This document shows positions 9,701-22,809 of a stretch of 22,809 nucleotides of DNA, piece after piece. The position numbers were made by a program, and so were the translations under genes. Below the pieces are notes generated by a model. The model was not told where the DNA came from, did not search any database, and saw only the letters and a list, made by a program, of their open reading frames with translations. This stretch comes from Thermoplasmatales archaeon SW_10_69_26 (GTDB lineage: Archaea > Thermoplasmatota > SW-10-69-26). Location of the stretch: the NCBI GenBank assembly GCA_003009755.1, contig PXUB01000008.1:1-22809 (forward strand), read 5' to 3'. The first letter of the stretch is position 1. Each line of letters opens with the position of its first letter.

Positions 9701-9870
9701 CGCGCTGTAAGGATAAGAAATGGGGGGGACCACCAAGTACGCGAAGGGACGCCAGGGCACAAGGGGGAGCAGCTGCCGTGACAGAGCCGCCCGGCGGCGA
9801 GTCACTAGGCCCTTCGTGGCCTTGGCGATCCTTCGTGTCCTTCGCGGCCCCTGCTTAACGAGACAGCCCG
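9701..9870. mobile_element. MITE copy 1 (170 bp), complete
   Basis: Ends CGCGCTGTAAGGATAAG ... CTTAACGAGACAGCCCG form an imperfect TIR. Perfect 9-bp flanking direct repeat GGCCAGCCG at 9692-9700 and 9871-9879. Homologous to copies 2 and 3. Confidence 0.88.
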
Positions 9871-15660: not shown

Positions 15661-15829
15661 CGGGCTGTGAGTATAAGAAACGGGGGGACCACCAAGTACG
15701 CGAAGGGACGCCAGGGGCACAAAGGAGAGCAGCTGCCGTGACAAAGCCGCCCGGCGGCGAGTCACAGGGCCTTCGTGGCCTTGGCGATCCCTCGTATCCT
15801 TCGCGGCCCCTGCTTAACGAGACAGCCCG
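15661..15829. mobile_element. MITE copy 2 (169 bp), complete
   Basis: Ends CGGGCTGTGAGTATAAG ... CTTAACGAGACAGCCCG with a perfect outer 8-bp IR. Flanks CCCCGGGCG (15652-15660) and CCCCCGGCG (15830-15838) match 8/9, consistent with a TSD. Confidence 0.85.
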
Positions 15830-18805: not shown

Positions 18806-18950
18806 CGCGCTGTAGGGATAAGAAACGGGGGGGGACCATCAAGTACGCGAGGGGACGCCAGGGCACAACGGGGAGCAGCTGCCGTGACAACGCCGCCCGG
18901 CGGCGAGTCACAGGCCCTTCGTGGCCTTGGCGATCCTTCGTGTCCTTCGC
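18806..18950. mobile_element. MITE copy 3, right end truncated
   Basis: Starts CGCGCTGTAGGGATAAG and aligns with copies 1 and 2 to ...GTGTCCTTCGC at 18950. The right TIR and the second TSD are missing. Confidence 0.85.
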
Positions 18951-19666
18951 AGTCCTACGAGCTGCTGGCCCACCACTACGACGCCATCCACCGATCCAAA
19001 ACCTACCGGCGCGAGGCCGACCGGGTGCTGGCCCACCTCGACCACCAGCTCGAGGGTCCCGGCGACCAGCTGCTGGGCGTGGCCTGCGGATCGGGGCGCC
19101 ACATCGCCGAGTTCACCCACCGCTACGCGTGCCTGGGCGTCGACGCCAACGCCGGCATGCTGCGCCTGGCCCGCGACCGGGTGCCCCAGGCGCGGTTCGT
19201 GCAGGCCGACATGCGCGAGCTGTGCCTCGCCAAGCGGTTCGACGCGCTCACGTGCCTGTTCGGCTCGATCGGCTACCTGCGGACGTGGGCCAACCTCGCG
19301 CAGGCCGTCGAGCGCTTCGCCGACCACCTCCGCGAGGGCGGCGCCTTCGCGATCGAGAGCTGGATCCCGCCCGAGCGTCTGCGCAAGCCCCTGCGCAAGG
19401 TCCGTTCCTACGAGGACGGCGACCGCGCCATCGCCCGCGTCGGGGTCGCCTCGCCGCCTGTGGATGGCTGCAGCGAGCTCACGCTCGAGTGGCTGATCGC
19501 CGAGGAGGGCGAGGAGATCAGCCGGCACACCGAGCACCAGCGGTTGGGCGTGTTCGGCGTCGACGAGACGCTGGATCTGCTCGCCGAGCACGGCCTCGAA
19601 GCGACCGTCGACGAGCAGGGCCTCACCGAGGACCGCGTCCTGTTCGTCGGGAACCGCGTGGGATAG
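18884..19666 (+). CDS. Class I SAM-dependent methyltransferase, 5' end abutting/fused to MITE copy 3 (possibly pseudogene)
   Basis: From 18953: SYELLAHHYDAIHRSKTY...LLGVACGSGRH...GVDANAGML...FVQADMREL...FDALTCLFGSIGY...HLREGG. The nearest in-frame start is GTG 18884 inside the MITE. Confidence 0.75.
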   Translation: MTTPPGGESQALRGLGDPSCPSQSYELLAHHYDAIHRSKTYRREADRVLAHLDHQLEGPGDQLLGVACGSGRHIAEFTHRYACLGVDANAGMLRLARDRVPQARFVQADMRELCLAKRFDALTCLFGSIGYLRTWANLAQAVERFADHLREGGAFAIESWIPPERLRKPLRKVRSYEDGDRAIARVGVASPPVDGCSELTLEWLIAEEGEEISRHTEHQRLGVFGVDETLDLLAEHGLEATVDEQGLTEDRVLFVGNRVG

Positions 19667-19766
19667 GGAGCACGAGGGACACCAAGGTGAAGGGCACGAA
19701 GGGACAAGCTGGGGAGGTCAGGGTGGGGACCACGAGGGACACCAAGGGGGCTAAGGGCACGAAGGA
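19666..19766. repeat. Two tandem ~40-bp 'TKDTK-type' repeats built of ~9-nt units CAC(G/C)A(A/G)GG
   Basis: GGGAGCACGAGGGACACCAAGGTGAAGGGCACGAAGGGA (19666-19704) and GGGGACCACGAGGGACACCAAGGGGGCTAAGGGCACGAAGGA (19725-19766); both are similar to the MITE arms. Confidence 0.85.
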
Positions 19767-19830
19767 CCGAGCAGGGAAGGCGGCAGGCAACGCCGGGCCG
19801 TCCGACGGAGTGGGAAGGGCCCGTGGAAGA

Positions 19831-19950
19831 TCAAAGGATCAAACGCTTGATGCCGTTTCGGAGGTGGGGGTTCGCCGACGTTCAGCAGAAAGCCAAGACG
19901 CTTCCCCGTGGCCTCCAGATACGTGAGGGTCTGAGCCGTGTGAGCGGACG
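19831..19950 (-). pseudogene. C-terminal remnant of a GxxExxY (PD-(D/E)XK nuclease superfamily) gene, frameshifted
   Basis: Minus strand reads HTAQTLTYLEATGKRLGFLLNVGEP. Removing one base from the G5 run (19866-19870) continues it as HLRNGIKRLIL-stop (19831-19833), matching the family C-terminus H.AQLL.YL..TG...GLL.NF....L..GIKR.IL. The N-terminal GxxExxY motif is absent. Confidence 0.8.
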
Positions 19951-20040
19951 CGAAGGGATTTGGAATCCCCGCTCCGGAGAACCCGGGGGGTAGGGCGTCT
20001 GAGCCCACCCCCGCTCCCAATCGCAAGACGCCGTCCGCCG

Positions 20041-20072
20041 CCCCCCGCTCGGGGGGCTCTCCTTTTCTTTCT
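20041..20072 (+). terminator. Possible terminator-like hairpin with T-rich tail
   Basis: CCCCCC-GCTC-GGGGGG stem-loop followed by CTCTCCTTTTCTTTCT. Confidence 0.3.
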
Positions 20073-20193
20073 ATTACGCTCACCCAGCGTCAGCTGCGTC
20101 GATTTCAGCAGGACCTTGTCAAAGCCGCGAGCGATCCCCAGCTGATCGAGCTGGGCATCCCACCGTCCTGGCCGCTGGCCCTCGCCATGCACC

Positions 20194-20397
20194 TTGAGGC
20201 GCTGGCCCCGCGGCTGGCGCTTCCACCGCCGGGACGCCTCCCGTCACCCCTGGCGATGCGATCTCTCGCTCAAGTGCGTACGCTGCGCGCACGTCTGGTG
20301 TCACGGTCTCGCCGTGACTGAAGAGGAGTCCGAGCGCCACGGCGAGGGCGTGCTCGACCGGCGAGAGGCCGAGACCCTCCTGCGCGAGGACGGGTGA
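20194..20397 (+). other. Small Cys/His-containing ORF or gene remnant
   Basis: KCVRCAHVWCHG followed by an acidic, coding-like tail. Weak TTG start; may be a truncated zinc-binding protein gene. Confidence 0.25.
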
Positions 20398-20685
20398 TCG
20401 CTGTGACGGTCGTCTTGGAGATCGCGACGAAGCCCGCCGACCGGGCGCGGTTCGCCGAGGGGGGAGAGATCGCGTTGGCCGGTTGGTCGTTGGGTCTTGC
20501 GAGGATGCTCCTTCGACCGAAGGAACCATAGAGGCTGAAATGCCCAATGCGGCGGCCACCGGCGGAGTGTGCGTTGTACAGCCCGGGATGCCGTGACGAC
20601 CTTGCCAGGAAGCCGACGACCGCCGACTTCTCCACCACGCACCCTCCCGACGATTCGGCGCGGGCCATTCCAGCGGCTGAGGAGC

Positions 20686-21552
20686 CTATGGTTCCTCCAC
20701 GTGCACGACGCAGGATCGATGGAACCGCCAATCGTCGGGGTCCGGAGATCCAAGTCCTAGTCTGTCGAAGGTTGCGTTAACGGCTCGCCCAGGGGTTTCT
20801 GCGTCGTCATCACCTCGGACCAGGACGGTCACAGTATCAAGAGCGTCGACCTTAACGCTGACGTTTGTTGCATTTACCGTTTGGCTGATCTCCGCCACGG
20901 CAACACCTGTCCGGAACCCCCACGGCTCGGCCTCGAAGGAACGCTCCTCCCCGGCGGCCTGCTCACGCGCTACCGGACGCGGGTCAACGTCCTCAAAGAG
21001 AGTATCTGTGGCCCAGGGCCCGTTGAATGGCATCTCGTATCGTGTAACGTTAACCATTTCTCCCTCGGGAGTCGACCGGACCGCCTGCCAGGCCTGAGCT
21101 TCGAAGAAACGGTCCGTCTCCTCCTCCACGGATCGCCGATCAAGGTCGGTGACGTTCTCAACGAACGACCGAAAGCGATCCCGGGTCTCCTCCAGGGGGC
21201 CATCCTCGAACGTACCCAGGACTGTTGCGTCACCACGGTTGTAGACGAGACGGAGTTCGGAAACGCGATCTTCCGCCGGCCGCCATTCGACGGATAAAAG
21301 CGACATGTTCGTCCCCTCCTTTCGATCTTCTGGGAGAGGAAACCCTTCTGGCGGGATGTTCACCGTCACGGGTCCGTGTTCCCCAGAACGCGAAGCGACT
21401 TCCTGGTAGATCCCTGATTGTTCCCAGGTCAGAGACGCCGGGCAGTCACTACTCTCTCTTTCCCCTGCTGGCTCACCAACCCCGAGGCAGCCGGCGGCAG
21501 CAGAGAAAGCTACGAGAAGGGCTACCATGGCGCCTGTTGCGTTCATCCACAT
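20686..21552 (-). CDS. Putative lipoprotein, unknown function
   Basis: Hydrophobic signal ending in a lipobox-like SAAAGCLG; 288-aa acidic ORF. Confidence 0.7.
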   Translation of the reverse strand: MWMNATGAMVALLVAFSAAAGCLGVGEPAGERESSDCPASLTWEQSGIYQEVASRSGEHGPVTVNIPPEGFPLPEDRKEGTNMSLLSVEWRPAEDRVSELRLVYNRGDATVLGTFEDGPLEETRDRFRSFVENVTDLDRRSVEEETDRFFEAQAWQAVRSTPEGEMVNVTRYEMPFNGPWATDTLFEDVDPRPVAREQAAGEERSFEAEPWGFRTGVAVAEISQTVNATNVSVKVDALDTVTVLVRGDDDAETPGRAVNATFDRLGLGSPDPDDWRFHRSCVVHVEEP

Positions 21553-21665
21553 GTTAGGGCCGAACAGAGACGGTTAAATCTTGCTACGCAAGTGTTCACC
21601 ACCCCCAGCGAAGTGTCTACTTCGTATCGTTCATAACAGGGTAGTCCTTTTTGTGCAAGGGGAAC

Positions 21666-22475
21666 ATGTTCCGGAAATCGTTCGTACTCGTCGTATCGCT
21701 AAGCTTGATGTTCGTCCCGATGACTGTTGCTTCAACGAGTGTCGTTCCCGAACCCGTTGAGGACAGGCCTCTAACACCACCGCCGATGGGACCTGTTTCC
21801 CACTTGTACGAAGAGGCAGAGCCGACATTCACGAGTGAAGGTCCCGCTCTCAGCGAGGGGGAAGCAAGCATCGCAACCGTCAGCGATCATGTCGTGGGGA
21901 TGCGCGCCGACGAGCCCGAAACCACAGGGGTCGAGATTGAGTTGAAGGTCTCTGATCCGGAGGTGCCGGCCGACGGCAGTAGCTGTTGTTTCTATTGGTC
22001 TGCAATAGGAACTAGCAGCGATTCTATCACAAGCTCTGTGTTCGTGGGTTGGACCGAAACATCCTGGGAGGGAGGATCGAGCGACCAGTACGTTTTCGTA
22101 TACGATGGGTACGACGGTGTGTGGAATTTCTACGGGCAGTACAGTATCCTCCCAGGCGAAGTTGTGTCATTCTCGCTGACTCACGATAGCGGAAATTATT
22201 GGAATGCCTGGGTGTACTCCGGTGGAAGCTGGGATCTCTTGTGGAACGAATACGTGGGGTACTCATATGCGGACAACGGCCACCAGCAGGGAAGGGTCGC
22301 CGACGACGGTACACACTTCCTTATCCACGACCCGTACTTTAGCGATACCGGTATCGGATTGGACTACGGATGGAATACCTGGGATACATCCATCGACACA
22401 CACCAACATAGTGATTCCGAGTACCAGGCCCAAGTTGGAACCCAATGGACGGAATGGTGGGCTGAGAAGTCCTGA
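21666..22475 (+). CDS. Secreted Trp/Tyr-rich beta protein, possibly neprosin/glutamic-peptidase-like fold
   Basis: Signal peptide MFRKSFVLVVSLSLMFVPMTVA; motifs SSVFVGWTE, YVFVYDG, GNYWNAWV, QQGRV; lower GC than the rest of the window. Confidence 0.65.
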   Translation: MFRKSFVLVVSLSLMFVPMTVASTSVVPEPVEDRPLTPPPMGPVSHLYEEAEPTFTSEGPALSEGEASIATVSDHVVGMRADEPETTGVEIELKVSDPEVPADGSSCCFYWSAIGTSSDSITSSVFVGWTETSWEGGSSDQYVFVYDGYDGVWNFYGQYSILPGEVVSFSLTHDSGNYWNAWVYSGGSWDLLWNEYVGYSYADNGHQQGRVADDGTHFLIHDPYFSDTGIGLDYGWNTWDTSIDTHQHSDSEYQAQVGTQWTEWWAEKS

Positions 22476-22809
22476 GCTGAGACATCGTCGCGGCTTCTAT
22501 CGATGGTTCGCCGAGCGGGCCTCTCCCGCCTCCTTGGCGTAACCCACCCCGGCCGGGCCGACGCTTCCCGCAGGGTGCTGACCGTTGGCTCTCAATAGAG
22601 GCTGCCTTCTCCCGCTGGTCAAACTGGCGCGAGATGAAAACTGCCAACGCCCGAGCTAGAGGAACTGGAACTCAGTCTCGGAGGGTCAGGGGTCCCGTCA
22701 GGTTACGAGTTCTGACGGGAGTCGCATCGGGGGGCAGAGGAGGAAAAGGGCCCTTGTCGTCCGTGACCGGACGGTCGAGCTGGTGATCGGCGGCACCGAG
22801 CGCCCTCTT

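Follow-up and report, generated by a model that had tools for sequence, protein, structure and literature searches.

The closest described relatives of the architecture considered here are hairpin-forming doublets of repetitive extragenic palindromic (REP) sequences, or REPINs, and the REP-associated tyrosine transposases (RAYTs), characterized by one gene set between short repeats in inverted orientation, by tens to hundreds of gene-less inverted doublets in intergenic or intercistronic positions whose flavour matches the resident gene, and by a single-copy gene held at the same locus in several species of one genus (10.1101/2022.05.22.493013, PMC3337134 and 10.1101/119735). Two further groups are relevant, namely insertion sequences (ISs) of the IS6 family together with miniature inverted-repeat transposable elements (MITEs), and small four-helix-bundle proteins (TIGR02436/PF05635). 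The latter were first described in intervening sequences (IVSs) of 23S rRNA, and the target duplication of IS6 elements usually measures 8 bp. The GxxExxY family (TIGR04256, PF13366) is widespread, at least 593 confirmed loci being recovered by one scan pattern. The literature found mentions ‘GxxExxY’ just in passing (e.g. PMC8934634) and lists the function of PF13366 as ‘Unknown’ (PMC3424549), and searches on GxxExxY, heptamers, REPIN/RAYT and four-helix-bundle or IVS proteins (PMC8700078) yielded no description of repeat arms of the kind reported below. Here, we consider the GxxExxY gene of a 22,809-nt stretch, the window hereafter, which is the entire contig C8 (PXUB01000008.1) of the 2.8-Mb assembly of Thermoplasmatales archaeon SW_10_69_26 (GCA_003009755.1; 70% G+C, 95% complete), as a member of a family of cassettes bounded by inverted repeat arms and accompanied by gene-less hairpins.

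A GxxExxY cassette is a unit of about 0.6 kb composed of a 5′ arm, a leader, the gene for a nuclease of the PD-(D/E)XK type with approximately 120 aa, and one or more 3′ arms. Arms were scored as the best inverted alignment between 300 nt upstream and 250 nt downstream of the gene, with a threshold of 26. In a set of 80 loci from at least 15 phyla (Acidobacteriota, Gemmatimonadota, Chloroflexota, Verrucomicrobiota, Planctomycetota, Desulfobacterota, Proteobacteria, Bacteroidota, Elusimicrobia, Bdellovibrionota, Methanosarcinales and others) this score was reached by 70 of the 77 testable loci and by none of the 64 displaced controls (medians 42 vs 18), and among archaeal loci from 13 related genomes and the genome of the window by 25 of 28 testable loci vs two of 20 displaced controls. 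All four cassettes of this genome (C36, C30, C35 and the one split between contig C20 and the window) possess inverted arms. In Bacteria as in Archaea, TIGR04256 genes come with inverted arms as a rule. The initial annotation, made from the letters of the window, had stated that such genes are often flanked by repeats of this kind and expected both arms on intact genes, and the survey bears this out well beyond the genome in which the expectation arose.

Arms are 34 nt long in the median and consist of three to four tandem units, which recur every 8-9 nt in 52 of 68 arms. The core of the unit is a heptamer, C-[A.65/G.29]-C-[A/G/C]-[G.70/A.28]-A-G, which corresponds to the skeleton C-R-C-N-R-A-G, and the outermost unit typically reads (TT)CACCAC.. 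or AACCGC... Flavours of this core vary between cassettes (CACAGAG, CGCAGAG, CACCAAG, CGCAAAG, CGCGGAG and more); in the genome of the window three cassettes have CACAGAG/CACGGAG units, and the C20/window cassette has MITE-like units of the CACGAAGG type, referred to below as K-flavour. Within a cassette, about 83% of positions (2389/2877) are the same in both arms. Along a tree of 64 proteins the second position of the core changes 11 times, whereas 300 shuffles give 18.4 changes on average and no fewer than 13. Arm flavour changes less than by chance along the protein tree, yet still often. Two observations can be added on cassettes themselves. A leader motif, (GAC)CTCGGGA(C/G)AA or TCCGGAGAA, is found 65-117 nt before the start of the match to the hidden Markov model (HMM) in 12 of 26 archaeal leaders (L010, L013, L015, L019, L026, L028, L031, L033, L001 and L002 among them) and in none of 26 control windows, and may be a promoter or a binding site. 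Arms also are amplified locally: one gene is followed by a tandem series of ten right arms, and others have small gene-less inverted pairs directly beside them (L049 2903-3267, L094, L079, L087, L060).

The likeness to REPIN/RAYT systems, put forward in the initial annotation with a restriction-like nuclease in place of the transposase, holds for the overall organization: the gene between inverted copies of a short repeat, the gene-less doublets in tens to hundreds at intergenic or intercistronic sites with a flavour corresponding to the resident gene, and the single-copy gene at one locus in several species of a genus are all present. The protein differs, being a PD-(D/E)XK fold of about 120 aa instead of HUH/Y1, and so do the repeats, since a REP is a single short imperfect palindrome and the GxxExxY arm is made of three to four tandem heptamer-core units that do not fold alone. 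Distribution is different as well, in that the GxxExxY system occurs in Archaea and many bacterial phyla and several genomes have multiple cassettes of different flavours.

Gene-less arm hairpins measure 90-130 bp and produce from tens to about 200 array matches per genome. Their relation to the gene was assessed in 41 genomes, that of the window and 40 relatives, 14 of which have a GxxExxY gene and 27 of which yielded none. The CACRGAG pattern repeated three times is present in eight genomes, all gene-positive, and in 0 of 27 gene-negative ones. At least four matches to the generic skeleton repeated three times are found in 13 of 14 gene-positive vs two of 27 gene-negative genomes, with 4-195 matches in the 13 and 0-11 for the reversed-pattern control, G003 being not clearly above this control; the two gene-negative genomes are G030 (10 matches) and G008 (7), and the remainder has 0-2. 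In G006 the matches are hairpins of about 90 bp with the form CCAGCC-ACAGAGGACACAGAGGNCACAGAG-loop-inverse. Dispersed arrays have the flavour of the own cassette in a Polaromonas-like bacterial genus of 61 genomes, where the gene occurs in three genomes in single copy each (CGCAGAG, 144 arrays in G069; CGCAAAG, 29 in G075; CGCGGAG, 3 in G041); the unpublished genome G076 of this genus enters tallies only and carries no claim. The same correspondence is seen in G019, where the arms of the L017 cassette recur as about 15 dispersed copies, and in G006, where the arms of the C55 gene are those of dispersed CACGAAG hairpins. Arm arrays are almost confined to gene-bearing genomes and often are of the resident cassette's flavour. 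Gene-less hairpins of the kind that the initial annotation proposed as derivatives are encountered in several genomes, and the co-occurrence of arm repeats with the gene, suggested there as well, is evident from the genome counts and incomplete with respect to G070 (51 arrays) and to the CACAGAG family of G006, both discussed below. HUH/Y1 transposase (PF01797) was not found in the array-rich genomes G000, G006 and G069. That the cassette architecture and the association of the gene with hairpins are real we hold with high confidence.

In the genome of the window, CACAGAG-type arms also form two gene-less inverted pairs of about 270 bp and 12 solo arms, for which no partner arm was found within 3 kb. 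Hairpins often, and cassettes as well, are exactly centred in a second, outer palindrome (G069 L167, L168, L171 and L174; G006 L128 and L130; G011 L010 and L021), those of G006 lying between inverted (AGCCTC)n arrays, and this nesting hints at palindrome centres as a target or at composite elements. Two intervals between arms were considered as alternative cargo and set aside as ordinary genes, namely the 1.5-kb interval on C29 with a PKD-domain gene and the DUF2911/TPR gene adjacent to L047.

Comparison of orthologous sites reveals presence and absence of both forms. In G041 the cassette separates trpE from trpG/pabA and is read in the same direction as the operon, and the flanking genes are present in all 61 genomes of the genus. 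They are separated by 7-17 nt in L116, L117 and L123 and, by coordinates, in six more genomes, relatives with this spacing including G060, G061 and G071, and other genomes have here a small gene of about 320 nt, a 1.3-kb transporter gene or a 124-nt spacer. The cassettes occupying this site in G041, G069 and G075 have three different arm flavours, and their flanking proteins are 87-98% identical vs 46-69% for GxxExxY proteins, therefore implying replacement, hot-spot insertion on repeated occasions or divergence at a very high rate. In G069 one of the gene-less hairpins resides in the spacer between permease and ATPase genes; of seven relatives compared, six have 1-16 nt at this place and one has 52 nt. 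Cassettes and hairpins are gained or lost at orthologous intercistronic sites in congeneric species.

Across an alignment of 21 sequences no change is seen at G17, E22, Y25, D62, E72 or Y90 and little at K74 (conserved in ≥90%), the catalytic D...E-x-K being a feature of the family at large. The AlphaFold model (pLDDT 96.6) displays a bare alpha-alpha-beta-beta-beta-alpha-beta core, according to which the GxxExxY protein is a PD-(D/E)XK fold reduced to the nuclease domain. Its structural neighbours in VIA-align are generic members of this fold, with Cas4 SSO0001 at Z 8.0 (root-mean-square deviation 3.1, 96 aligned) followed by restriction-like proteins, NucS (Z 7.0) and Hjc (Z 6.8) in the range of Z 6.8-7.6. 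The sole sequence match in PDB is Cas4 4r5q (E 0.055), and Foldseek against PDB gave no match at E ≤1e-3. Thus, the core fold is shared with Cas4, Hjc and type II restriction nucleases, from which GxxExxY differs by the lack of a specific match and by being a bare domain inside its own inverted arms. The score of a predicted homodimer was 0.00 and counts neither for nor against.

The fragment in the window was described in the initial annotation as the C-terminus of a truncated and frameshifted GxxExxY gene, and its family assignment stands. Positions 80-108 of the 116-position TIGR04256 profile match 19868-19954 on the minus strand (E 5e-4, 21.5 bits, cut-off 35), and positions 82-108 of the 117-position PF13366 profile match the same fragment (E 5.8e-4, 20.7 bits, cut-off 22); both scores are weak because the piece is short, covering by itself 29 of 116 TIGR04256 positions and falling below both curated cut-offs. 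Over 72 nt (19883-19954) it agrees without a mismatch with the 3′ end of the GxxExxY gene piece on contig C20, which scores 107.2 bits with TIGR04256 and contains the G-x-x-E-x-x-Y motif (GLLEKVY, invariant in 21/21 aligned sequences) outside the window. The translation reads ...AQTLTYLEATGKRLGFLLNVGEP and then shifts frame to HLRNGIKRLIL*, where ...GIKRLIL* is an ending typical for the family, with the stop codon at 19831-19833. The +1 frameshift is confirmed and sits in a run of five G (plus strand 19866-19870); contigs of sequencing runs X2 and X4 leave out one base of this run (at 19866), and the frameshift is gone. At the position of the catalytic lysine the C20 sequence reads E (IEVESV), and D and E are kept.

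Truncation by decay is the part of this description that did not stand. The genome has five GxxExxY places, i.e. intact genes on C36 and C30, the gene on C35 cut by an insert, the gene on C20 that lacks its 3′ end and the fragment in the window. The 5′ part and the 5′ arm of the window gene are on C20, which abuts C8, the last 64 nt of both contigs (22746-22809 in the window) being identical in reverse orientation. Past the 72-nt segment (C20 region 41299-41538), which is present twice in the assembly (on C20 and in the window), C20 enters a 348-bp multi-copy repeat. Read along the assembly, the 5′ arm, the leader and the 5′ part of the gene with the 72-nt segment at its end are followed by the 348-bp repeat, about 2.6 kb of unique DNA (22565-19955), the 72-nt segment again, the 3′ part of the gene and two right arms. 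All runs sharing words with the region are labelled as halite metagenomes, and none of those listed is recorded as RNA. A contig of run X1, which may be the source of this assembly, follows 19400-19954 without difference and passes straight into the reverse complement of the C20 5′ part, and contigs of X2 and X4 likewise pass from the 3′ part of the gene into the 5′ part. A second X1 contig (record 2) starts 30 nt before 19955 and spans 19925-22603, i.e. the 2.6 kb. In runs X2-X4 no contig covers 19970-22477 save an X2 trace at about 21452-21565, and nothing is drawn from this blank. Since contigs of X1, X2 and X4 join both halves of the gene directly, decay does not account for the break at 19954/19955; what interrupts the gene on its 5′ side is a junction in this contig, and the gene is no relic. 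The junction is one of three things, an insertion allele of about 3 kb flanked by 72-bp repeats, a separate or circular molecule, or an assembly path.

Two direct repeats, noticed in the initial annotation about 65 bp past the stop, begin approximately 62 nt past it; they are about 44 nt long each, 35/37 identical to one another (copies A and B) and pyrimidine-rich on the gene strand, which is the orientation of a right arm, as had been supposed. The neighbouring methyltransferase gene (18962-19666) is convergent, and the final base of its stop codon is also the first base of copy B. Copy A is identical to the reverse-complemented right arm of the MITE at 34 of 43 positions with a score of 35, compared with 13.7 ± 2.6 and a maximum of 26 in 500 shuffles; the match to the left arm is weaker (34/42, score 26, shuffle maximum 27), and an arm of other flavour (C36) scores 9. 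The claimed correspondence of the repeats with MITE arms is correct as an observation, more securely for the right arm, whose score exceeds the shuffle maximum, than for the left, whose score stays just below it.

The MITE in question is an element of about 170 bp found in 47 places of this genome with 80-97% identity and not found in the 40 other relatives. It is organized as CGCGCTGTAAGGATAAGAAAC, left arm, GC hairpin, right arm and CTGCTTAACGAGACAGCC(C/G)G, and as single-stranded DNA folds into a long imperfect hairpin (-43.1 kcal/mol, z -2.4). A 9-bp duplication, longer by one base than usual for IS6, flanks 18-20 of the 25 copies with both ends recognised by pattern. The right end (reverse complement CGGGCTGTCTCGTTAAGCAG) matches at 17 of 20 positions the element end CGGGCTGTCTAGTTAAGCGC on C41, which is the left end of an IS6-like element of about 800 bp with two copies, 85% identical (C38:59702-60500 and C41:~50950-51749). 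The C38 copy has an open reading frame (ORF) of 239 aa, frameshifted in the C41 copy, that matches the IS6 transposase model NF033587 at E 6.2e-21, its 75 bits falling short of the cut-off (125). Gene cassettes are devoid of CGGGCTGT ends. With terminal inverted repeats, target duplications, 47 copies and a right end matched in an element whose ORF hits the IS6 transposase model the MITEs resemble derivatives of the IS6 family, and differ in the interior, which is not IS-derived and represents a GxxExxY-type arm-hairpin-arm core, as well as in a transposase below the curated cut-off. Because its ends resemble an IS6-like element of the same genome, a DDE transposase is the most likely mover of the MITE, and judging by these ends the element is probably IS6-driven and not dependent on the nuclease. 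A K-flavour arm-hairpin-arm core would have come between IS6-like ends and have been amplified to 47 copies by the DDE transposase. Of the two options that the initial annotation had left, capture of the core inside a MITE with terminal inverted repeats and target duplications is thereby supported, both by the cassettes lacking these ends and by the resemblance of the ends to the IS6-like element.

In contigs of X2 and X4, unlike in this one, a MITE right end adjoins 19811 in the interval from the gene stop to the arms, which is a polymorphic MITE insertion. Two more observations concern MITE ends. The third MITE copy of the window shares the point at which its right arm is cut with several other copies of the genome. 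At C35:11318-11835 the CACAGAG-flavour GxxExxY gene is cut by an insert of about 210 bp with inverted ends GTGTCTCAGTTGG ... CTGGCTGAGACAGC and CCCTTGCGC on both sides, and its GGCTGTCTC-like terminus resembles MITE and IS6-like ends.

Taken as a whole, the data incline us, by a modest degree, to a GxxExxY cassette with hairpin offspring, in which the nuclease serves as a trans-acting partner of arm arrays and the MITE is moved by the IS6-like transposase. The nuclease would read heptad units or their hairpin and make cuts letting arm-bounded DNA be copied, which would represent a REPIN/RAYT-like replicator on a restriction-like fold. The narrower step of this scheme, that the nuclease itself mobilises hairpins and the cassette would be autonomous as proposed in the initial annotation, is drawn by analogy and is put forward tentatively, as slightly doubtful. 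In the broadest form GxxExxY enzymes would be an unrecognised class of replicators in Bacteria and Archaea, in which the nuclease reads C-R-C-N-R-A-G heptads and mobilises DNA between inverted arrays without DDE, HUH, serine or tyrosine recombinase, and four-helix-bundle ‘IVS’ proteins would head a parallel class; this we regard as rather unlikely.

Several points weigh against this scheme. No direct trace links the nuclease to movement, and neither target duplication nor clean footprint was seen at cassette or hairpin sites in the species compared, which are about 20% diverged. Arms of one cassette are just about 83% alike (488 mismatches at 2877 positions), and the K-flavour gene is frameshifted here with E-V-E replacing E-x-K. 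G070 holds 51 arrays of the G069 type and G030 holds 10 with no gene found; for the abundant families CACAGAG in G006 (79 matches, assembly 99% complete), CACGGAG in G002 and CACCAAG in G020 no cognate gene was found in the assemblies, the two remaining genes of G020 bearing other arms. The related genomes are not independent, and most are incomplete metagenome-assembled genomes. As to the MITE, its left end resembles the IS end weakly, the 21-nt left end has no site outside MITEs at ≤4 mismatches, and the IS6-like ORF had no match in a Pfam scan in addition to the NCBIfam score of 75 vs 125 bits. Finally, four-helix-bundle genes have inverted arrays of tandem 7-8-nt units in eight of 10 loci (L152-L161; G043, G045, G106, G107), with one flavour dispersed. 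Because these non-catalytic genes bear analogous arms, the architecture needs no nuclease cargo, and because the family combines such arms with dispersed hairpins, the cargo protein need not be a transposase.

This parallel deserves attention of its own. The units of four-helix-bundle arms (TGAAYGA, TGGTTAA, CAGTCAT, GAACCAA and others) do not follow the C-R-C-N-R-A-G skeleton, and the fold is unrelated to that of GxxExxY; the small gene bracketed by inverted arrays is common to both. In G107 the TGAAYGA flavour is met 399 times (control 1), and some copies form inverted pairs with a distance of about 49 nt. The genome of the window yielded no TIGR02436 match. By analogy, the parallel fits a small nucleic-acid-binding protein that would mark its own arrays, host functions doing the chemistry, and it would also fit a role of arms at the RNA level, which the absence of G-U bias does not favour.

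Such a role is the core of the alternative that GxxExxY cassettes are IVS-type elements, with an arm stem that in the transcript is cut out, as by RNase III in IVS-type elements of 23S rRNA, terminates or insulates and renders a selfish gene harmless in operons or rRNA; the nuclease then would be mere cargo serving some other purpose, and the spread of hairpins would be the work of the host. Besides the four-helix-bundle family with the same kind of arms, the position of cassettes and hairpins in very short intercistronic spacers speaks in its favour (cassettes oriented with the operon at trpE-trpG, a hairpin in the permease-ATPase spacer), and so does the bacterial 5′ arm, which is probably transcribed because it ends at a median of 38 nt before the HMM start. 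Mismatches between arms, however, have no G-U bias, upstream A facing reverse-complemented downstream G 103 times and the reverse case being met 91 times. Both the skeleton and the 8-9-nt period are kept across phyla, though a plain stem needs neither; archaea have the same architecture with a leader of about 100 nt and its own conserved motif between arm and gene, and the dispersed flavour follows the resident gene. On this balance we regard the RNA-level explanation as unlikely.

An equally small chance is assigned to hairpins moved by host replication, repair or an unlinked enzyme, with GxxExxY as a passenger or as a domesticated structure-specific nuclease acting as guardian or regulator and not as transposase. 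Array families devoid of the gene or of a cognate gene (G070, G030, G006, G002, G020) are compatible with it, as are the non-catalytic cargo of the four-helix-bundle system and the junction- or end-processing nucleases among structural neighbours (Cas4, NucS and Hjc). It is countered by the co-occurrence of gene and arrays across the 41 genomes, by the match of flavours in 3/3 gene-bearing genomes of one genus, by the failure to find Y1 transposase in three array-rich genomes, and by the regular presence of the gene inside its own arms both across phyla and in archaea, arms that a mere guardian would not need. The remaining option of the initial annotation, movement of the MITE by the GxxExxY nuclease cutting with a 9-nt stagger, is highly improbable: MITE arms are K-flavour like those of the window cassette (34/43) and the K-flavour gene is contiguous in X2/X4 with the frameshift-causing base left out, but the MITE right end matches the IS6-like element at 17/20, which by the refuting condition named in the initial annotation speaks against this variant, cassettes and arm-only hairpins elsewhere have neither MITE ends nor duplications, and the K-flavour gene lacks the catalytic lysine.

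The genes of the window are archaeal-looking and include HVO_0163-type and HTH_10 regulators, a T2SSE-KH ATPase, a CheB-CheR fusion and a histidine kinase. The 348-bp repeat at its end has further copies on C2, C14, C19, C31 (two), C46 and C22, and constitutes a second small repeat family. Coordinates of the features are collected in Table 1.

Table 1. GxxExxY cassette parts, MITE copies and adjoining segments of the window (numbering from its first nucleotide).
Feature	Positions	Strand	Evidence or remark
MITE copy 1: IS6-like end, left arm, GC hairpin, right arm, second IS6-like end	9701-9870	+	9-bp duplication GGCCAGCCG
MITE copy 2	15661-15829	+	
MITE copy 3, right end missing	18806-18952	+	abuts start of methyltransferase ORF
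Right arm copy B	19666-19705	-	repeats copy A in direct orientation
Right arm copy A, four tandem ~9-nt units	19725-19768	-	GGGGACCACGAGG GACACCAAGG GGGCTAAGG GCACGAAGGACC (plus-strand spelling)
GxxExxY / PDDEXK_3 gene, 3′ part, K-flavour (CACGAAGG-type arms)	19831-19954	-	HMM matches, translation, identity to C20
DNA interrupting or replacing the 5′ two-thirds of the gene	19955-22565	.	single-copy in the assembly; ORFs without Pfam family
Part of 348-bp multi-copy repeat	22566-22809	.	continues on C20 (41371-41538)

With these results the GxxExxY family gains concrete and testable biology in the form of armed cassettes, hairpin populations and their gain or loss at orthologous sites. The REPIN idea is extended beyond HUH transposases and into Archaea, a class of purine- or pyrimidine-rich intergenic repeats finds an explanation, and four-helix-bundle ‘IVS’ proteins become tied to the same architecture. 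The TKDTK- or TEDTE-like N-terminal extensions encountered in annotations are explained as well. In practical terms, arms provide a simple annotation marker for GxxExxY cassettes and their relics.

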